Shown one piece after another: positions 2,656-53,856 of a stretch of 64,000 nt of DNA. The translations under genes were made by a program, and so were the position numbers. The notes beneath the pieces are model-generated. The model was not told where the DNA came from and ran no database searches. It saw nothing but the letters and a program-made list of their open reading frames with translations. How positions within the stretch are numbered: position 1 is the first letter of the stretch; each line of letters opens with the position of its first letter. The stretch comes from Eledone cirrhosa (lineage: Eukaryota): assembly GCA_964016885.1 (NCBI GenBank), contig OZ024747.1:87482001-87546000 (forward strand), written 5' to 3'.

Positions 2656-4227
2656 TTAATATTGTATATATGTATGTTATATCCATTAATATCTATCACT
2701 CAAGGCTATATTCAGTACTACCATCATTTTCTCTCCTCCATGAGATTCTTACCTGTCATCCACCACTCTCTATTACTATACCACATGTTTTCTCATACCA
2801 TCACACATCCCTATCATATTCACATTGCTCATGTTGTTTTTACTGAACCAACATGTAGCTACCATTGTCCCTCTCCCTGTCCTATCAACCTATCTGTTTC
2901 CCTCTTCACACTTATATTTATACTCTTTCCTCTTTCAATTTCTTTACCATCACCCCTCCTCCAAATCATACCCCCTCAAACACATGTGCTTTGAAAGAAT
3001 CTTCACACCTTGTAGGAATTTTTTTATTCTTTAATTTGATTTAGACATGTTGGATAAGGCCATGCTGGAACAATGTAGTTGTAGATATACAATAAGTCAA
3101 ATACTCATGATTGAAACTCGTTTGATCATAGCTCTACACAACAACATTATCATCAACAATCACATCAACAATCACATCAACAACAGCAGCAATGAAGATT
3201 TTTCAACATATTCTTAAAATGGATAAGAATGGACTGTAGAAGCTGATAAAATTACATAATGACATTGACTGAGAATAGAGATCAAATGTTTTAGGAACAA
3301 TTGTAACTCTTCAGAGTCTTGGGGTACTTTTGGGGGGTTTGTTAAGATGGAATGTAGTGAACTTGCAGCTGCTGGGGGCTGGGGTTGCTGGGATGATTAG
3401 AAGGGAGTTGAAGATGGAAGTAACTTTAGTTCCTATTATCTTTTCTCTTATGCATGCTTAGAATCATTTCAAATGATAATGTTACTGAAAATAAGATTCC
3501 TTGAAAAGATAAGTTTAGTAAATAATCTGTACTTCTTCAGTATTTTTGTGCTCCCAGCATATAAAAAGTTGTCCTTAGTTGTACACAGTATTATTTATAA
3601 TATAGTAGTATCATTAAAATCATTTGTATGCAGATATTTTTTTTATGTGGTTATTCCTTTTAATTTTTCTTTCCTTATTTTGGCAGAAGTCCATGGAGGG
3701 TAAGGATAGCCTCTATATTAGATGTTTATAAAATAAATATATTCAGTTTATTGATTTCCCTATCAAATAAAATAATAACATGTTCCCCCTTCTTCACTTG
3801 GTTGTAGGCTATGTTTGAATGAATCAAAATAAATCAGGCTATAATTGAAAAGATAGTGTTTGTTTTAACTAGATTTTATCTTTAAAAAAATAGTAGCCGT
3901 ATTTGATTTATTTTGTTTTCTCATTTCTGTATCAGCTTTTATTTGTAAAGTAAGTAAAAGCTCTATTTCCTCAAGGACTATCCAAATGTAGTGTCAATGG
4001 CATAATAGAGAACTTATTCTCAGTATAAACCTTAAATCAGAGTATGAGAAAGAGAGAAAGAGAGAGAGATGTATTTAAAAAGCTATGATAGACTCTGTAG
4101 TTAGAAACTTCAAACATTTTCAGATCTTAATAGTCATGGTGTTGTTGTTTAACAGACCTATGAAATAAGGCATTTCACTCATGACCACTCGGTTGTTTCA
4201 TGAGTATGTAAGACTATTATCTAAAGT

Positions 4228-5447
4228 ATACTTAGAGCTTTTTAGTTTCACTTGCAACCGTTCTTAACTACTATGCCTATAATGAACCAATGATGAAGCC
4301 TCTACATGACCACTTGACCTGTTAGAAATAAGAGTGTAAATAAATCTCCCTCAATCCAGACACTACACACTTTTATAAAGACATGAGGATACTTTAGATC
4401 AAAGGTTCTCAATGGGGAGCATATGCACCCCCGGGGGGCGTTTGGGAGCAAGGTTGCGTTAGGGGGGCATTTAGAGCTGGGGGAGGGGGTAAGGGGGGCG
4501 CTGGAAGGCTCTTTATTTTGTTAAGTTTTATAAGCCATATTTGTATGTCTTTGAGACAGCCAGTGTGAATGCATTTGAATGAGCTTGCAGACAACATAAC
4601 TATAGTCTGACCGCAGGTGTGAGCAGGTGTGCAGGCATGTCCGCTAATTGAGATCCTAAAAAGGGAAAAACCCACAGTCACCTGGGTTAAAGACACTTTG
4701 AGCGCAGCCAGTTAGAATCTTATCTTTCCTTCACCAATAACAATGTATTTCATGTCTGAAATTATTGACTCAACCGCAACGAGTTAACACTATGTAGATC
4801 TATTTTATTCCCTATTGTATAAATAATATTACAAATAAAAAAAAAAGAAAAGAAAAAACAGAAGCGGGTAGCACACACATCTAGGACCACATACAACACA
4901 TAATCAGATAATACACACATCTTTGGAATATTGTTAATCAATTTTTTATTAATCTACTGATATAAAAATCAGTAGTATATTGAAAAATGGAAAAATAGGG
5001 GGGGGGGGGCCTTTCGTGATTTCGAGGGACAATTTGGTTTAAATGGGTTGAGAACCTGTGCTTTAGATAATTGTTTCTACTTTTGGCACAAGGCCAGCAA
5101 TTACCCAGTGCATTACTGCTACTTTATTTTATCGACCCCGTAAGGATGAAAGGCAAAGTTAACCTCAAATCCCACTGAGGTTAACTTTGCCTTTCATCCT
5201 TATGGGGATCGATAAAATAAAGTACCAGTAATGCACTGGGTAATTGCTGGCCTTGTGCCAAAAGTAGAAACAATTATCTAAAGTATCCTCATGTCTTTAT
5301 AAAAGTGTGTAGTGTCTGGATTGAGGGAGATTTATTTACACTCTTATTTCTAACAGGTCAAGTGGTCATGTAGAGGCTTCATCATTGGTTCATTATAGGC
5401 ATGGTAGTTAAGAACGGTTGCAAGTGAAACTAAAAAGCTCTAAGTAT
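4228..5447. repeat. Long inverted duplication centred on a SINE (left arm 4228-4399 plus 5069-5167; right arm 5176-5447)
   Basis: The arms are near-perfect reverse complements once the MITE at 4400-5060 is removed. 14-bp direct repeat ATTATCTAAAGTAT at 4216-4229 and 5273-5286. Confidence 0.9.
4400..5060 (+). mobile_element. hAT (Buster-type) MITE, internal-deletion derivative of the element at 42071-45148
   Basis: TIRs CAAAGGTTCTCAA / TTGAGAACCTGTG. 8-bp TSD CTTTAGAT (4392-4399, 5061-5068) with central TA. Both ends match the ends of the 42-45 kb element in reverse orientation. Confidence 0.92.
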
Positions 5448-6095
5448 GACTTTTTCAAACATAGTTTTATATACAATATAGAGTTAACTCACTTGTACAT
5501 TCAATATAATGCTGATATAGTTTTATACATAATATAGAGTTAACGCACATGTTTATTAAATATAATACTGATATAGTAATATGGAGTTAAACCAACTGTG
5601 TATTAGCTGTGATACTTATATAATTTCATATACAACAAAGTGTTAGCGCACAAACACACATGAACATATCATATATGGAAATGATTTCATGATCTCATAT
5701 TATACTAAACGTACATAAACTGTGTCATCTAACCTTTTTGCATTTGTATGTACACACCCTCACTCATGCTCCACCCCACTCTCTCTCGCTTCCGTGCACA
5801 CACACACACACAAAAACCTACCTGAGCTAGTCTCATCACAATGTTTTATATTTCACTATAAATCATAAATCAATTAATTTAAAGGAGCAGGCATATCTTT
5901 GTATAGTGAAGTGTGTTCAATTTTAGGTTTAAGAGTTCACCTCACTCTACTTGTCCTGTTTTGTTGCTTAAGGAATTTGTTTAGTTGACACTGACTACTT
6001 CTTGCCTGGTTGGTTTTCACGGGCTGACTAGCTATTATCAGATTGCTGCATAATGGATCTCTCTCTCTAATGAATATATATATATTATATATAGG

Positions 6096-6229
6096 AAAAG
6101 GTTCAGGACCCCGACGGCAGAGCTCAAGCCGTTTCGATGGCTATTTCTGAGTCCAGAAATAGCCGTTGAACGGCTTGAGCTCTGCCATCAAGGTCCTGAA
6201 CCTTTTCTGGACTCAGAAATAGCCGTCGA
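6096..6229. repeat. Palindromic element embedded in (TA)n; related copy at 52084-52146
   Basis: GAAAAGGTTCAGGACC...GAGCTCAAGCCGTT is followed by its reverse complement around the hairpin GGCTATTTCTG-AGTC-CAGAAATAGCC. Confidence 0.75.
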
Positions 6230-23528: not shown

Positions 23529-23846
23529 TTAATTGTAAGTTGTGATGTTGCTGTTCCACTCGTATTTTCTATTTAATTTTGGTTTTAATTCTTTTATGCT
23601 TACTGCCTCTGTAATTTGCCTAAACATTGCGTCTTTTCTGTGCGTGGATTCTATTTTTATTTCTATGCTCTCTAATCTACCCCTGTGTTCTATCTTAGCA
23701 TGTTGGTAGAGCACAGATGATTCTTTATTATCTTGGAGGTCTCGCCAGTGTTCATTTATTCGTTCCCCTATACTACGAGCTGTCTCACCTATGTACACTA
23801 TATTTTTGTTTCTACATTGTCCTTCAGTACATCTTATGCTATACAC
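23529..23846 (-). pseudogene. GIY-YIG endonuclease domain of a Penelope-like element (truncated ORF)
   Basis: VY..YIGET.R...R..EH motif and C-terminal E..I....P.LN motif. Confidence 0.9.
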
Positions 23847-23953
23847 TACATTTCTAGTTTTACAGTTAATATGGGGGCTTATTTTACAGAAACAAAATGG
23901 CGTAGGATAGAAGAAAGAAAAGGCACAGAAACGAAGAGAAGAAAGGAATCCCC

Positions 23954-23998
23954 AGTCACTGAAGAGGTCACAGAGTGTGTGACGAAAGGACTATGACT
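23954..23998 (+). ncRNA. Minimal type I hammerhead ribozyme (family B)
   Basis: Stem I AGTCA/TGACT; core CTGAAGA at 23959-23965; stem II GTCACA/TGTGAC; GAAA at 23984-23987. Predicted cleavage after A23993. Confidence 0.75.
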
Positions 23999-27496: not shown

Positions 27497-28353
27497 ATCA
27501 TAATCATTATCTATAAAAGGCAGATTTTTGTGTCTGTATGTATGTTTCAATTTTATACATTTACACAATTCCAAAAATATTGAATGAATAATTAAGCAGA
27601 ATGTTTACAAATATTCTAACTTGGGTCATGGGCGATCTTATTGGCTAAAAAATGCCACAATTACGGAAAAATCAATTTATTTCAACAATCGATGATTTCT
27701 CCTCTCTCATATGATATACGTTTCCTATATCTATTCCCATTCATCACCTCCCCTTAAAATTGCTACCTTCTCTTATAAGTGTTTGTGAAAAAGAGAAACA
27801 TTGAAAAAAAATATATACACACATATATGTTGGTATGGTTACGATTGGCGTCATAGAAACAGGAACGCGGGAATTTCAATCAACCAACGCATACACAGTT
27901 TGTTTTAGAAATAACAATAGCATATAATGATAAAGAGATCGGCCTTACACTTTCATACACGCATACATACATATACACACATACATACAAATACCTGTCA
28001 CTTAATTTACACACACATCGGCCTTACACTTTCAAACTATATTTTTCTGTAAAAGTAACTTTAACCCTTTCTTTTCGACATAAAAATACACACATACATA
28101 CAAATACCTGTACATTTGGGGGAGGAGGGGGGGGGGGGGGGGGCTTTCTTATCAATCTTTTTACATTCAATTATCCGCCTTATACTTTCAAAGTCAATTT
28201 CTATGTTGAAGTAACTTTCACCCTTTATTTTTCGATACCCATTTACTTACTAACATTTGTATCATAACAATAACAATATTCATAAACAGACAGTAGACTT
28301 TCAAAGTCAATTTTTCTGTAGAAGTAACTTTCACCCTTTCTTTTGGACATAAA

Positions 28354-29073
28354 ATGCCACCTAAAAAGAGAAGTCGCCTCAGTCGACATACCGCGTCAGC
28401 AGTGGCGCAAAAGGCTACTATAGCAAACGAGTCCTCTGAGGAAAATGCTTCAAGACTTTCACAGACAGCCTTACGTTCAGCAGAATGTCGAGCCGCTGAA
28501 AGTTTCCAACAGCGCACTGCACGCCTAGCCAAAATGGCTTCATACCAGGCTTCTTCCAGGGCTTCAGAGAGCCGTGAACAAAGGTGGAAGCGCCTGGCTA
28601 GAAACGCTGCGACTAATGCTGCTTCCAGGTCTTTGGAACGTTTAAAACAACGGACGGCTCGCCTTCCTACGGACGCTGCGGCTATGACTACTTCCATGGC
28701 TTCTGAAGATGTAGACGGGCGGTCCATTAGCATTGCAAATGTTGCTTCTGCTATTGCTGCCAGACCTTCCCACCAACCACACGACCAATGTTCTACGTTC
28801 AAGCGTAACAGTCGACGGCGAGAAGCTGCACGCGGTGTGACCAGCCCTTACTGGCACCTACGGGCTTTCAAGTATGAGCAAAACGTTAATTACTCGATGC
28901 GCTCTAACATAAATACAGGCGAGATGCGCTTCAATTGCCAATTCTGCAATGCTACAAAGTGGGCTGGGGAGCCACCTGAAATGTGCTGCTTAAACGGTAA
29001 CGTCACCTTGCCTCCTCTTCCGGAACCGCCAGAGCCTTTGAAGGAACTACTGACTGGTTATACCTCAAGGTAA
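28354..29073 (+). pseudogene. Helitron RepHel N-terminal region (truncated)
   Basis: CQFCNATKWAGEPPEMCCLNGNVTLPPLPEPPEPLKELLTG is the conserved Cys motif that precedes the Helitron Rep domain. Confidence 0.8.
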
Positions 29074-29107
29074 AAAAAAAAACCCCAGATCCCCCCCAAT
29101 AAAAAAC

Positions 29108-30370
29108 GCTCCTGGGGGTACCGGAAAAACTTTTGTAACGAATTTGATTCTCGCTAAGATTCGTCAGGAGAAAAAAGTTGCGTTGTCCGTTGCATCGTCC
29201 GGGATCGCTGCTACTTTGCTGCCGGGAGGCAGGACAGTACATTCAACCTTTAAACTCCCTTGGGATTTAGTAAAAACTGAGACACCAACATGTAATATCA
29301 GCAAGAGTTCACACAAAGCTCTGGTTCTCAAAAGATGTTGCCTCATTGTTTGGGATGAGTGCACAATGGCACACAAGGGTGCCCTTGAGGCATTGGACAG
29401 GGCCCGGAAAGACATTAGGGATTCTACGGCTCCTATGGGTGGCGTAACCCTTCTACTATCAGGGGATTTTCGAAAAACGCTTCCTGTCATCCCCAAATGG
29501 ACAAGAGCTGATGAAGTGCGTGTCTGTCTTAAGTCGTCCATGTTGTGGCTCCAGGTGAATAGTTTGTACCTCAGCACAAATATGCGTGCTCATTTGCATA
29601 GTGACAACATTTCTGCAGCACAGAACATTTTAGCACTTGGTGAGGGCAAGATCCCTGCGGATGACAAGGGCGGCATAGCAATCGACACCCTGTGCAACAT
29701 TGTGAGCAGCCCTTCTGACCTTTGGGAAGCAGTTTTTCCTAATGTCTCATCTAACTTTAAAAACCTCGATTGGCTCAGCGAAAGAGCCATCCTTGCTCCG
29801 AAAAAATACCATGGTTAATTTTATAAACGAGCAGCTGATTGAGAAGATTCCCGGTAAAGAGCACATCTTCAAATCAGACCCCGACGATATCGTTAATTAT
29901 CCGGTTGAGTTATTAAATCTCCTTGAGCCCCCAGGGCTCCCACCTCACATTATTAAGCTTAGGGTTGGCGGTCCCATTATGCTAATAAGGAACTTGCGTC
30001 CACCAAAGCAGTGCAACGGTACTCGCATGGTCGTCAAGTCACTGACACCCACTTGATTGAGGCCACCATTGTAACGGGGTGCGGAAGAGGGGAGAATGTT
30101 TTCATTCCAACGATGAACCTTTTCCCCTCGGCGTCAGATATCCCGTTCGATTTCCGACGATCCCAATTCTCGGTGAGACCATGTTTTGCCATGTCCATTA
30201 ACAAGTCACAAGGGCAAACATTGTCGGTGGCGGGCATCCATTTGGAGGAGCCATGCTTCTCTCATGGCCAACTTTATGTTGCCTGTTCCCGCGCAGGGAA
30301 CAGGAATGGACTTTTTGCTTACTCTCCTCAAGGGATGACACGCAATATCGTCTACAAAGAGGTGCTATAG
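29108..30370 (+). pseudogene. Helitron PIF1-family helicase, frameshifted
   Basis: Walker A APGGTGKT at 29108, ASSGIAATLL, IVWDECTM, GDF, CNGTR, FAMSINKSQGQTL and FSHGQLYVACSR, split over three frames. Confidence 0.92.
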
Positions 30371-41509: not shown

Positions 41510-42320
41510 TAAATCAAAATAAGTTGACTTATAATTGTTTCCAATCGACTTGTGGGTTTCCAATTCAACCCATCATCTCTGCAAATGATTTTAAATAAAA
41601 TGTCCATGTCTTCTTCTGCATCAGAAAAGCCTATCTGAGAAATTAATATCAAAGCTTATATTTTTGTTTCTTTTACTGAATTCAAAAAATCTTATATTAT
41701 TATTAATAGCTGCAACTAATAGTTACCTAGCACAGGGCTTCTTAGGATATATCAAAATTACTTATTCACTTATTGTTCAACAGACTGTATTTTGCTAAAC
41801 ATTAATGAGAAAATAAATACAGCAACATAATTCCATTGAAGCATTCATTATCTAGTTTAAATTTTGTTGCCAGGTGAGAAAAATAAAATGCATAAAGAAA
41901 TATACAACATATTTCTTAATATGGTTAATTTTTAGGAATCTCTGATGAAAAGAAAATTTTGACTTGATAATAAAGTATGTTATTTTTTTTTTTTCACATC
42001 AACTTCTTACAAAAGAGGTATTACCTAAAGTTTTTAATGGTATATTTTATATTGATATTAAGGTTTAAAGCACAGGTTCTCAACCCATTTAGGCCAAACG
42101 CCCCCTTTTGTCCCTCAAAATCAGGAAACGCCCCACCCCCACCCTATTTTTCCATTTTTCAATATACTACTGATTTTGATATCAGTCGATTACTAAAAAA
42201 TTGATTGACAATATTCCAAAGATAACATTGCAGGCAGCTGAGAGTATAAATACATTCCTTGAAAGGAAATATATAAATTTCAAAAAAAGGAACATAAATG
42301 TTCTTTTTTATGAATAAGGA

Positions 42321-42696
42321 AGGCGCATGGCTTAGTGGATAGAGCATTGGGCTTGCAATGTGAGTTCAATTCTCAGACCGGGTGATGTGTTGTTTCCTTG
42401 AGCAAGGCACTTTATTTCACATTGCTCCAGCTTACTCAGCTGTAGAAATGAGATGATAGGACTGGGGTCCCTATCATTCCATTGCAAAGTGGTCGTGGAG
42501 GTGCCACGGCAAAAAAAGCACCCAGCACTCACTGTAAATGAGGTTGGTGTTAGGAAGGGCATCCAGCTGTAGAAATCAAGCCAGAATCGGTTCCCATATG
42601 AGCAAGACAAGGTCAGCCGACCAGACACTGCCCACAACAGGACAACCCATCTAACCCATGCTAGCATGGAAGAACGAATGTAAAACAATGCTGCTG
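42321..42696 (+). mobile_element. tRNA-headed SINE with RTE-derived 3' end, nested in the hAT element
   Basis: Same family as 22469-22811. Confidence 0.85.
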
Positions 42697-43119
42697 AAGG
42701 ACCAGTTGTATTTGTTATATTCCCACCAGGCAATACCAGCTATTTTGAACATTTATACAAGAGCAACTCTGTCTATCCAAAGAGTGCTCTTATCTGGAAG
42801 AAAGTGGCAATTATATAATTTCAAAGCTTTCCAATTTTTCTTTTAATGAAATGGACAGAATAAATGTTGATATCTAACTTGATGTCCCCTCCGCTTTGTG
42901 AGCTTAGAGACCATGGAAGAGGGTTTTCATGACTATATAAGAGGGTATATTTATTAGTAAATGGTAAAATATATACAACAAATGAGTAATTGAATTGTAG
43001 TAGATGGTTTCCAGTCCAGTCAGACTGCAACTACAAATAAAAAAATTGTTAGTTTGCTTTGCAACAATAGCATATCCAAGTTTTCGGATAAATCAACTTA
43101 CTTTAACTTTGACCTCATT

Positions 43120-44125
43120 TCAATGGAACCCTTGAGCTTCATGGAGTCTAGCTAACTCTTTGATGTGAGGCTGAATTTTCGTAAGATGTAGCCAGAGATC
43201 TCCACATGTAACTACATTGTAGTGGTTGCGAGACTTACTTTGCAGTCTGGAAACAGCATCAAACCTCCTCTCGACTAAGTATGAGCTTGGAAAAGGCAGA
43301 GAAAATCTCTTAGCCTCTGCATGTATGAGTGGAAATCGACGCTGAATTTCCTCTTGCATCCAATAAAGGGGTTCACCTATTTTGAGAAATTTAATTTTGA
43401 TCATGTCATCTGCTTGAAGTTCAATGAATTCTTCCTGAAATTTAACATCCAAATCGTCGATGGTAGCTATGAAGGGATCTGCTATCCACATTGGGATGTC
43501 CATCGGCAAAAGCTCAACAAACTGTTCTCTCATGTTGTCTTGTAGTGCACAGAGGTGATCGGTATAAATTTGGAGTTGGTCATCGCTTACAATGTTTTGA
43601 ACATTGGCGACACTAGGAAAATTATAGAATTCCCGTCAACAAAGATTCCTTTCGATGACATTCAATTTGGCCAGGAATGTTTTCACAGCATTCCTTGCTT
43701 TAAGCAATGTGATCTTCTCCCCCTGCAAAGCCATAATGATGCTATTGCATTTGTCGAAGACGTTAGCGAGGTAGGCGCAGTCTTGCCTCACATCGAGGGT
43801 TTTCTTGTACAGTTCTGTGTTGCGTCCTCGAAGAAACAATGATAGAGTTGAACAGTTCAAAGAAGTGAGTAAGGCACTTTACCTTTGAAAGCCACCTCAC
43901 TTCAGTATGAAGGAGCAACTTGACGAATTCTCTGTCATTATCTTGGCACAGTTGCCGAAAAATTCGTTCATTGATGGAATGGAATTTGATAAAATTGATG
44001 ACATGAATGGCCACCTGCAAGGACTTGCTCAGCGGCTTGCTGAGTTTCTTCGCAGCCAAGTGTTGTCGATGAATGACACAATGAGCAGCAAATACAGATA
44101 GATTTTCTCTCTTCAGAATAGTAAT
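43120..44125 (-). pseudogene. Buster-type hAT transposase, C-terminal half, frameshifted
   Basis: HCVIHRQHLAAK (CxxH), LLHTEVRWLSK, AYLANVF, PFPSSYLVE, GDLWLHLTKIQPHI. Confidence 0.9.
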
Positions 44126-44129
44126 AAAA

Positions 44130-44700
44130 TAGACACATCTAATACACACATCTAGGACCACATACAACACACTGGCAAGTAATTCATAAATCTAGGATCA
44201 CATACAACACATAAGGAGGTAGTACACACATCTAAGACCACATGCAACACACAACCAGGTAATACATACAGCTGGGACCACATGCAATACATATTTGGCC
44301 GACCATTGCTCTTGCGTCGTCCGTAGCACATGATACAATATGTGTTGTATGTGGTCCTAGATGTATGTATTATCTGCCTGTGTGTTGTATGTAGTCCTAG
44401 ATGTATGTATTACCTGTTTATGTATTGCATGTGGTCCCAGCTGTATGTATTACCTGCTTGTGTGTTGTATGTGGTCCTAGATGTGTGTGGTGTGTGCTAC
44501 CTCCTTATGTGTTGTATGTGGTCCTAGATGTATGTATTACCTGCCTGTGTATTGTATGTGGTCCTAGATGTGTGTATTACCTGCTTATGTATTGCATGTG
44601 GTCCTAGATGTGTGTATCATCTGATTATGTGGTCCTAGATGTGTGTATTACCTGCTTATGTGTTGTATGTGGTCCTAGATGTGTGTGCTACCCGCTTCTG
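44130..44700. repeat. ~39-bp tandem array (TGTGTTGTATGTGGTCCTAGATGTGTGTATTACCTGC), partly inverted
   Basis: Units at 44340-44690 are in one orientation; units at 44130-44293 are in the opposite orientation. Confidence 0.88.
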
Positions 44701-45477
44701 TGTTTTTTCTTTTCTTTTTTTATTTGTAATATTATTTATACAATAGGGAATAAAATAGATCTACATAGTGTTAACTCGTTACAGTTGAGTCAATAATTTC
44801 AGACATGAAATACATTGTTATCAGTGAAGGAAAGACAAGATTCTAACTGGCTGCGCTCAAAGTGTCCTTGACCCAATTGACTGTAGGTTTTTCCATTTTT
44901 AGGATCTCAATTGCCGGTTAATGTCTAGACATCCCTGCACACCTGCTTACAGCTGCAGTCAGACCATAGTTATGCTGTCTGCATGCTCATTCAAATGCAT
45001 TCACACTGGCTGTCTCAGAGACATACAAATATGGCTTATAAAACTTACCAAAGTAAAGAGCCTTCCAGTGCCCCCTAGCACACCCTGACGCCACCTTGCT
45101 CCAAAACGCCCCCTGGGGGTGCATATGCCCCCCCATTGAGAACCTTTGGTTTAAAGTATTGAGAAAGGGTTTCCAAATGGCACCAAATCTCCTGGATAAA
45201 TAGTTTCATATAATATTTACAGCATAGTTTTATGAAAGAAACAGTACAAGTGAGATAAGTGAAGTAGATAAATTCAGTATATATATTGTTTATCTGGTCT
45301 TTCTTCTACACATACTTTTTTGCTGAAAGTCTGTTTATATTTCCCTCCTTCTGGTGTTACTACCATGTGCACAACTTACATATACTATCTCTCATCCTGC
45401 TTCCCATTCAGGAGACTATTTTTTATTATTATTTGCCTATGTACTCTGCTGTACTAATCTATAGACACTTCATTATC

Positions 45478-45915: not shown

Positions 45916-45999
45916 ATACACACACACACAATATATATATAATTATTAGAAATATAAGGTAAACGTAATTATCTATAATTGTATTTTTTGTTATTGCAG

Positions 46000-46359
46000 T
46001 GTGCCGTGGTACAAGCCAGAAACTAACACATTCTGGCACAGCCCAGTTTAGATATGATGCACTTCGGAGAAGATACACGAACTGTACATATGTTGAAGGA
46101 AACCTAGAAATCGTTTTTCTCGATAACAAGACAATCAAATATAACTTATCATTTTTAGAAACAATCAAAGAAATTACTGGTTATGTACTTATTATTGATG
46201 TTTATGTGGACTACATACCGTTAACAAATCTTCTGCTTATCCGTGGAAGAGAACTTTTCGTACAGAAAGAAAATAGCTACAGTTTATTTGTAGCAAGTAA
46301 TTATGACAGAGGAACTAAAAAAGTTGGGCTCAAGGAATTACGTTTCAAATCTCTTGGAG
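46000..46359 (+). CDS. EGFR: EGF receptor, first identified exon (domain I / L1)
   Basis: tgcag|..|gtaagt; VCRGTSQKLT...NCTYVEGNLEIVFL...LSFLETIKEITGYVLI...GLKELRFKSL. Confidence 0.95.
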
Positions 46360-46617
46360 GTAAGTCTTTCAGTACAGCAATCTCATCTTGTTTACACTTT
46401 TGTGTTTATATATATATACAGACACAGGCTTTACAATCATGAGGTTCCACGTTCAATCTATCTCGAAGACATCTTAAGCAAGTATCTTTATTAAGGTCAA
46501 CCCAAGTCTTGTGAGTAAAATTAAAGAGAGTGAAACAGTTTGGTAGCCTGTCAGTTGGACTGTACCTATAATTCAAGCTGCATCATACTTATTCTCCCTG
46601 AAAATTATTTTAAATGT

Positions 46618-52022: not shown

Positions 52023-52086
<64 letters not shown>

Positions 52087-52789
52087 GTCCAGAATTAGCC
52101 GTCGAAACGGCTTGAGCTCAGCCGTCGGGGGTCCTACTCGTTCCTATATATATAAATATATATATGTGTGTGTGTGTGTGTTAGTCTTATCAAGGAGAGG
52201 AGAGTAATGCCCATGATTCTTTACATGGCATTCAAGACTGTTAGCATAGAGGGGAAGGAAGCCACAAAATGGAGACTTGGCTTGAAAAATTGCAACAGAG
52301 TAGACTCCACTAAAGCACTAAAAGGAATAGTTATAATCATAGATTTAACCCTTTTGTATGGTCTTATATTCTACTGAGTGCAGAGGATAGGTTGCCATGG
52401 CTTTGACACATCTGGAGGTTTTCCCAATCCTTTGTTTGGCAATACATGACTGGATACCCTTCATCCACAATCACTTTACAGTGTGTACTGAGTGCATTTA
52501 GTGTGTAAATTACCAACAGTAGGGAGACTGTCATGTCCTTGACATGACTGAAGGGTCCTCCCAACCCTTTGTTTGGCTGTATGCCCTTCCTATCACCAAC
52601 CACTTAACAGAATGTACATGTGTTTATAATGTAGGTCACCAATACTAGAGAGGTTGCCATACTGTGGCACAACTGAAAAACCCTCTCAACACCCTTTTTT
52701 CTCTTTCTCTCTCTCATAGAGATGAGAACTCACAGTGCCATAAATTGGAGGTGTAGTGATGGATAGATAGAGAGAATAGCTAAAGAGTA

Positions 52790-53095: not shown

Positions 53096-53465
53096 GGGAC
53101 CAAGAGTCAGAGCTTAAGATAGTTGGAGGTGGAAGATACTTCTCCAGACATCACACATAAAAACACATAGTCAATCACTTACACAAATTGTATTAAGAAA
53201 TAAAAGATTATTAATTAGACAATGATTTAACATACTTTTTATTGGACTCTCAACGCAAACTTAATTCTGAAAAAAATTTTTATTTTACAAAATCCTTCCA
53301 AATTCTTAATTATTTTCAAAATACATAGAAAATTAAAAGTAGTATTTTTTTTTTCTTTTTAGAAATATGATAATAGTTTGATAGCATTTATATCTACATT
53401 TATGAATATATTTTATTGGTTTCTAAAAAGTATTCTATCAGTGTTATATTACTCTAATGTTACAG

Positions 53466-53567
53466 AACACATGTTGAAAGACGTTGCTGCATGTGTAAGA
53501 AAATGCCCCCCAACTAAACAGGCAATCAACAATACCTGTGTACTATGTGAAGGACCTTGTCCAAAAA
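53466..53567 (+). CDS. EGFR: EGF receptor exon (end of domain II)
   Basis: ttacag|..|gtaagt; KHMLKDVAACVRKCPPTKQAINNTCVLCEGPCPK. Confidence 0.93.
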
Positions 53568-53856
53568 GTAAGTTTAATGAATATCTTTATTTTTGTTGTT
53601 CCCACCTAAAAATACCATTGGTGGTACCATTATTCGTTTCTTTTAAATATTTAAACTCTTTATGTAAGACAAACAAATGTTTATGGAAATTTTTAAGTGT
53701 AATTTGTTTTTTACTTTCAATTGAATACATCAAATAAATGGACCACAGCCTAGATATTGTCTTTTTTCCCTTCTTTCTTTTTTTTTTTCTTTAATTGAAC
53801 CTAACACTACCATAAACCATTGCACCATTCTAATTTTCAATCTGTTTTCTATCTAG

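Follow-up and report, generated by a model that had tools for sequence, protein, structure and literature searches.

The question raised by positions 4216-5447 of the 64,000-nt stretch of Eledone cirrhosa DNA analysed here (the window) is how a single truncated SINE came to stand next to an inverted copy of itself which runs on into an inverted copy of its own downstream flank, with one direct repeat enclosing the whole. The reading preferred here, to which a probability of about three in four is given, is that during target-primed reverse transcription (TPRT) the cDNA snapped back on itself, was extended through the 3' junction, and was then joined to the upstream end. The features of the locus are as follows.

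4140..4229, plus strand: left half of an older repeat, the target of the SINE insertion.
4216..4229, plus strand: left TSD copy at the upstream end of the insertion; its last 2 nt double as microhomology with the arm end.
4230..4399, minus strand: outer left arm, in which 5276-5445 (part of the TSD and the downstream host flank) is repeated in inverted orientation.
4400..5060, no strand assigned: hAT-like MITE of 661 bp with 13-bp TIRs and an 8-bp TSD, a later insertion in the left arm.
5061..5167, minus strand: inner left arm, repeating in inverted orientation the 3' half and tail of the SINE (5176-5283).
5165..5277, plus strand: 5'-truncated sense SINE, roughly the last 112 nt of an element of about 192 nt, with the ATT tail at its end.
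5168..5175, plus strand: loop of 8 nt that forms the turn; its letters are native SINE sequence, and a stem of 2-3 bp closes it.
5273..5286, plus strand: right TSD copy, with 5 nt in common with the SINE tail.
5287..5447, plus strand: native downstream flank that was copied, 161 bp, of which the first 100 bp or so continue the older repeat of the left flank.

Exact copies of the 14-bp direct repeat (TSD) lie at 4216-4229 and 5273-5286, as the initial annotation of this DNA had it; the chance of such a repeat at a fixed site is 4e-8, or 1e-5 if just the 9 nt unexplained by the SINE tail are counted. That annotation listed three bracketed parts, an inverted flank, an inverted SINE half and a sense SINE half. 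All three are present, and the MITE, which had been missed, makes a fourth. In reverse complement, 4228-4399 matches 5276-5447 at all but 1 of 172 nt, the 2-nt overlap included, and 5061-5167 matches 5176-5283 over 107 paired columns with 2 mismatches and 1 indel. The two inverted segments are one arm split by the MITE at 4400-5060: with the MITE removed in silico the locus reads TSD, inverted copy of 5176-5445, 8-nt loop, SINE 3' half, TSD and flank, and the rejoined arm is 275 nt long as measured by the script. The copied flank, first put at about 170 bp, comes to 161 bp beyond the TSD (5287-5447), and it has only two close copies genome-wide, both at this locus. At 4230 the left arm has no tail of its own and carries the flank of the same site; the outer junction shows a 2-nt overlap, and 7 of 8 nt match there with one gap. 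The turn, which had been placed at 5167-5176, is an 8-nt native loop between the arms, and both the loop and the three bases preceding it are native SINE sequence. The stem is of 3 bp, reduced to 2 bp with the family-majority letter at 5176, so that it would have been of 2 bp at insertion if this base mutated afterwards; the isolated stem is computed to be unstable (+0.7 kcal/mol). The same turn position recurs in 12 of 51 loci sharing the head-to-head pattern described below.

The MITE at 4400-5060 has 13-bp terminal inverted repeats and is flanked by its own 8-bp duplication at 4392-4399 and 5061-5068, short TIRs and an 8-bp TSD being the marks of a hAT-type element. Its family has members of about 670-840 bp, with 1391 candidates of which 40 were scored; among 11 relatives fetched, the 8-bp TSD was exact in 8 and had one mismatch in 1, the left end being unreadable in the other 2. 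A likely parent-type copy is the 3,078-bp element at 42071-45148, which has terminal inverted repeats identical to those of the MITE, an exact 8-bp TSD, a tandem array near 44140-44640 and, on the minus strand at 43120-44191, broken frames that we take to resemble Buster-type hAT transposases; a Pfam search gave no match for the frames of this element. The MITE in the left arm differs from its family majority by 2.8% (8/286). From this divergence about 13 differences between the arms of the locus would be expected, and 3 substitutions and 1 indel are found (p about 0.004). The arms thus look younger than the MITE they enclose, which needs either a diverged MITE source or later conversion between the arms.

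Elsewhere in the window, the region 6095-6229 contains overlapping inverted repeats (arms of 39 nt and 26 nt) between AT runs; part of it matches 52086-52165, and it is a small unrelated repeat. Fragments resembling Helitrons, with a match to PIF1 helicase (E 1e-52), occupy 28297-30370. An exon at 45969-46442, with a Receptor L domain (PF01030, E 8e-17), is presumably EGF-receptor-like, and there is another cysteine-rich frame at 53363-53737. The frame at 23529-23990 we assume to be GIY-YIG-like.

A palindrome in an assembly might itself be a fold-back artefact of the assembly or of long reads, and no single contig was found over the whole structure. Such an origin is made unlikely by the mutations that distinguish the arms, by the MITE with its own TSD inside one of them and by the direct repeat around the whole. 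One sample, which may be the assembled individual, had three short-read runs; in these the arms give a contig of 172-193 nt at about twice the depth of its neighbours (12.1 against 6.6 and 6.7; 6.3 against 4.6 and 3.4; 11.1 against 5.9 and 6.4). Unique contigs stop 29-30 nt inside the arms, one ending at 4257 without differences and another beginning at 5418; the left junction is crossed by 28 nt, which is below the 31-nt rule for bridging, and so supports the junction without formally bridging it. An artefactual origin is accordingly regarded as very improbable.

Which of the arms is new can be asked of the empty site. When the left and right flanks were joined in silico, the product aligned across the junction to 8 loci, 95 loci and the remainder of the window having been searched. 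The matches left and right of the TSD were, respectively, 45/67 and 69/95 for L008, 60/71 and 64/94 for L019, and 40/62 and 73/90 for L006; L019 had been found from a left-flank query alone, and L006 and L008 from a right-flank query alone. These alignments bear out the earlier claim that the sequence left of 4229 continues into 5287 and beyond as one older repeat, and they support the view that this repeat spans the empty site, the left arm being new and the right arm native. The older repeat is also an apparent recurrent target of the SINE at the site ATTATCTAA, seen in L024, L038 and at 4216, loci selected by a query containing part of the site. The initial annotation had suggested looking for the empty site in related species. 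In a sequencing run from another species, a contig of 513 nt can be aligned to 4078-4175, with 7 differences and 3 gaps, and to the counterpart of 5284-5353, with 6 differences; the two flanks are separated in it by 53 letters, where 51 would be predicted for an empty site. The distance between the flanks therefore agrees, and this contig too speaks for a native right arm and a new left arm; the 53 spanning letters are unaligned, so that a single TSD copy is not seen in it. It is possible that the contig represents a paralog; its identity is about 90%, compared with 62-81% for paralogs. In the same run the SINE family is present at high depth and the MITE is almost absent.

Several familiar routes to a rearranged insertion are incompatible with this geometry. 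In twin priming the inverted piece comes from a stretch of RNA that lies upstream of the sense piece and does not overlap it; here, in contrast, the inverted piece of the SINE duplicates the sense piece and continues into host DNA. In 3' transduction a flank from the donor locus lies, in the sense direction, between the element and a new tail; here the flank is native to the site, inverted, and has no tail. A foldback of the upstream end was likewise rejected, the turn lying inside the SINE and the copied flank being the downstream one. The earlier statement that the locus represents neither 3' transduction nor L1-type twin priming holds on both counts.

The SINE belongs to an abundant family, one family group 16-mer having 201,181 exact matches in the 3.0-Gb assembly. 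For comparison, 103 complete-ended ordinary copies were drawn from 60 stretches of contig C1 around listed 16-mer matches. A TSD of 10 or more was present in 53 of the 103, by a search looser than that applied to the fold-backs, and apparent 5' truncation in 40, part of these being tail-only matches to a longer relative. Their TSDs start inside the ATT tail, and the 14-mer at 4216/5273 has the same form. The SINE thus displays the hallmarks of TPRT, namely a TSD of variable length, a simple-repeat 3' tail overlapping the TSD, and 5' truncation. It presumably resembles cephalopod SINEs, and a B-box-like motif appears to be visible; neither ARAGORN nor Rfam gave a match that would indicate a tRNA origin. 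The family was not identified from the available portions of PMC4824008 or PMC6007223. A partner LINE with a common tail was not found among the LINEs of 30 RT loci or in the fragment at 1110-1784 of the window, which we take to be the C-terminal part of an RTE-like LINE; the dominant young LINE of those 30 loci ends in ATT repeats, and its tail sequence is not common with the SINE.

If the structure arose through a property of SINE insertion, others like it should be detectable. The initial annotation had proposed a genome-wide search, which was carried out with exact patterns, two 16-mers standing head to head 2-30 nt apart in each of three 30-nt windows of the SINE. It returned 274, 131 and 48 head-to-head apexes, 453 in total, or at least about 0.2% of SINE copies. 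A tail-to-tail control gave 3 against the 274 and 3 against the 131 (405:6); the third window, with 48, had no polarity control. The two 16-mers are similarly common (24 and 19 in 231 kb). The first 50 of the 274, 43 of the 131 and 47 of the 48 were examined, making 141 loci with the window locus; after omission of L061, L091, L127, L147 and L154, in which no tail was located, and of the duplicates L099 and L167, 134 remained.

With so dense a family, two independent insertions landing head to head must be considered, and naive independent placement would indeed give about 98 close pairs of either polarity. Yet the opposite polarity gives 3, for which reason this null was rejected as unrealistic. 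Moreover, an A/G subfamily letter is common to both arms in 51 of 51 loci (p about 6e-12), and the inverted arm is tailless in 100 of 134. The left arm in the window, tailless at 4230 and bearing the flank of its own site, tells equally against two insertions and against the related notion of a 3' transduction landing reversed at its own site. Both are hardly credible.

A rearrangement of an older full-length SINE, by replication template switching or break repair, would replace its 5' half with the inverted 3' half and flank. Such events do occur in this genome, since three of the six opposite-polarity loci (L101, L102 and L105) are SINEs of otherwise full length in which a short inversion takes the place of an internal segment, and a late event of this type would account for the young-looking arms if the MITE source were old. 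It predicts, however, that the two polarities be about equally frequent, contrary to the ratio of 405:6, and that SINE heads be left over, whereas a sense SINE head stands beside the arm in just 3 of 134 loci. It also predicts private mutations shared between the arms: of the differences in 1,443 paired columns, 67 are specific to one arm (2.3% per arm) and 19, mostly common variants, are shared. The arm-specific divergence equals that of ordinary copies, for which the median distance from the majority is 2.4% (n=30). In the window, such a switch would have had to return exactly at the TSD end, and without a SINE head, while the contig from the other species, which links the two flanks, goes part of the way towards an allele lacking the insertion. 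A later rearrangement is therefore considered improbable.

In 61 of the 134 loci (60 of 133 without the window) the TSD ends at the inverted arm, compared with a permutation null of mean 3.6% and maximum 8.3%. The proportion among short-armed fold-backs, 51/100, is close to the 53/103 of ordinary copies, which were scored by the looser search. The arms end inside the SINE in 100 loci, at the tail in 10, 9-20 nt past the tail in 13, and more than 20 nt past it in 11, of which two are microsatellite only. Copies of unique flank were found in L141 (57 nt), L115 (55), L077 (54), L098 (42), L168 (40), L150 (37), L069 (28) and L132 (26), and in L091, outside the 134, where 190 nt of flank were copied with 185 matches; only this one exceeds the arm in the window, which reaches 176 nt beyond the tail. 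Where the arm reaches or passes the tail a TSD is seen in 10 of 34 loci, against 51 of 100 short-armed ones (p = 0.045), and a clear TSD together with more than 20 nt of non-microsatellite flank is confined to the window, L069 and L141 (3 of 11 long-flank loci). Trimming of a long-lived upstream end would explain the lower TSD rate of long arms, and some long-flank loci without a TSD may have another origin.

The patterns do not capture every such structure. L239 (G000:C1:16000-25990), the one long-loop case among the 103 unselected copies, is a truncated SINE in which a piece of the 3' region stands inverted between the TSD and the 5' end, and suggests that more fold-backs are missed. L103 appears to have folded twice. 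In L209 (G000:C2:240161680-240165366) a 5'-truncated young LINE of 945 aa has at its 5' end 437 nt that repeat its downstream sequence in inverted orientation, with a loop of about 205 nt and arms 99% identical; no TSD was seen, and this is the one locus in 30 LINE loci with snap-back geometry.

The position of the loop bears on a further possibility, in which the insertion intermediate has a second primer: the top-strand TSD end would prime synthesis from downstream DNA or from another SINE RNA, copy back through flank, TSD and SINE, and be joined to the first cDNA. This yields the same product at the time of insertion and accounts for the polarity and the TSD; the 7/8 match at the outer junction could be the priming site. 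The joining of two independent cDNA ends should leave native loop sequence on either side. Among the 100 short-armed loci it lies on the tail-bearing side in 87, on the other side, as a second primer would allow, in 10, and 3 are ties (87/97 decided, p = 2e-16). In addition, the left arm in the window passes unbroken from flank through the entire TSD to the SINE tail, and this needs a continuous sense-strand DNA template which would not yet exist at that stage, and RNA could not supply the flank of this particular locus. A second primer is on this evidence judged unlikely. The preferred reading, self-priming of the cDNA at insertion, had already been put forward in the initial annotation, and it is supported by the polarity, by the TSDs abutting the arm and by the loops on the tail side. 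For one folding to copy SINE, TSD and downstream flank, the strand that folds must bear the tail and be joined downstream, as the first cDNA does. A fold in that cDNA accounts for the polarity, for the TSD at the end of the arm and for the side of the loop; a late break in an old copy accounts for none of the three.

Snap-back of the first cDNA would proceed as follows. The nicked lower strand would prime reverse transcription at the ATT tail, and the cDNA would stop after about 112 nt, its 3' end being marked by the loop at 5168-5175. This end would fold back on the 2-3 bp stem and prime synthesis on itself, and a DNA-templated polymerase would copy the cDNA, pass the primer junction and, displacing a strand or filling a gap, add a further 161 nt copied from host DNA. 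The LINE reverse transcriptase and a host polymerase such as Pol theta are candidates for this extension; opening of a sealed hairpin is another candidate route. The unfolded 3' end would then be joined to the upstream TSD end through the 2-nt microhomology, and fill-in would give a palindrome with arms of about 280 bp, into the left arm of which the MITE would afterwards insert. The 2-nt overlap at the outer junction is as expected of microhomology joining, and stem microhomology of at least 2 nt was found in 32 of 81 scorable turns (91 examined), compared with 11-18% expected. Passage of every truncated copy through an opened hairpin was also considered and is not supported, the inverted matches at the 5' junction being no longer than the null (2-6 nt) in the 40 apparently truncated copies among 103. 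Ordinary truncated copies thus have no excess of short inverted ends, and these data do not establish snap-back as the default.

Snap-back priming is in itself already known, and related fold-backs have been described for L1; the interest of the present case lies in the number of loci and in the run into host DNA. For R2-mediated PRINT transgenes, 'snap-back' is a named category of 5' junction, in which the cDNA 3' end primes on the cDNA before the 5' junction is made, so that upstream target is joined to antisense element (PMC11371274, PMC11331408). The present locus has a junction of that form, with reverse-complemented cDNA at the cDNA 3' end joined to upstream target; that it arose while the insertion was in progress, ahead of the 5' junction, is indicated indirectly by polarity, TSD, loop side and divergence. 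Unlike the inherited SINE case, the PRINT junctions are engineered, at a single rDNA site in cultured human cells, and the available portions of those reports do not describe a run through the 3' junction into downstream host DNA, a bracketing TSD or inheritance (PMC11371274, PMC11331408).

Breaks made by L1 ORF2p give rise to inversions, inverted duplications and foldbacks, also on the reverse-transcribed end (10.1101/2024.12.14.628481). As in the mechanism proposed for the SINE, 3' ends that anneal to themselves through 2-bp homology prime inverted duplications beside TPRT sites; TSD-like overlaps are kept, and on the reverse-transcribed end one inversion and several of the foldbacks contain the insertion plus genomic DNA. 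The short inverted duplications shown in the available portions of that work, however, sit on the upstream (reciprocal) end, unlike those of the SINE, and the cases on the reverse-transcribed end are either an inversion without duplication or large foldbacks ascribed to replication or fusion, in somatic or cancer genomes (10.1101/2024.12.14.628481). At somatic L1 sites a short foldback inversion upstream has been reported in 4 cases (0.3% + 0.1%), with 52-220 bp of extra DNA synthesis during resolution, a frequency of similar order to that found here; there, as far as the available text goes, the upstream flank is copied and the turn lies in host DNA, whereas in the SINE the turn is in the element and the downstream flank is copied (PMC10191854). 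With L1 twin priming, as described in the same source, the locus has in common an inverted piece of the element at the 5' end within the TSD (PMC10191854). No description of an inherited class of SINEs with a snap-back run into the downstream flank was found in the literature searched, subscription papers and supplements being outside its scope.

The fold-backs described here bear on the making of the second strand and of the 5' junction in non-LTR insertions. They provide, for a single 192-nt template, hundreds of fixed and inherited snap-back junctions, from each of which the stopping point of the cDNA, the stem and the length of the synthesis can be read, so that rival models become testable on natural data. 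They also reveal how a SINE can create tight palindromes and duplicate host DNA in inverted orientation; the products would give rise to double-stranded RNA and to instability, and in repeat annotation they would be mistaken for two insertions. It is tempting to go further, and to suggest tentatively, as a conjecture that may well prove wrong, that SINE retrotransposition in the germline is a standing generator of palindromes: about 0.2-1% of insertions would self-prime their second strand, and in about one tenth of those the element's own reverse transcriptase would pass the 3' junction, displacing tens to hundreds of bases of the chromosome. If this is true, the turns and run lengths would together form a natural map of where the cDNA of a non-LTR element stalls and how processive its second-strand synthesis is.
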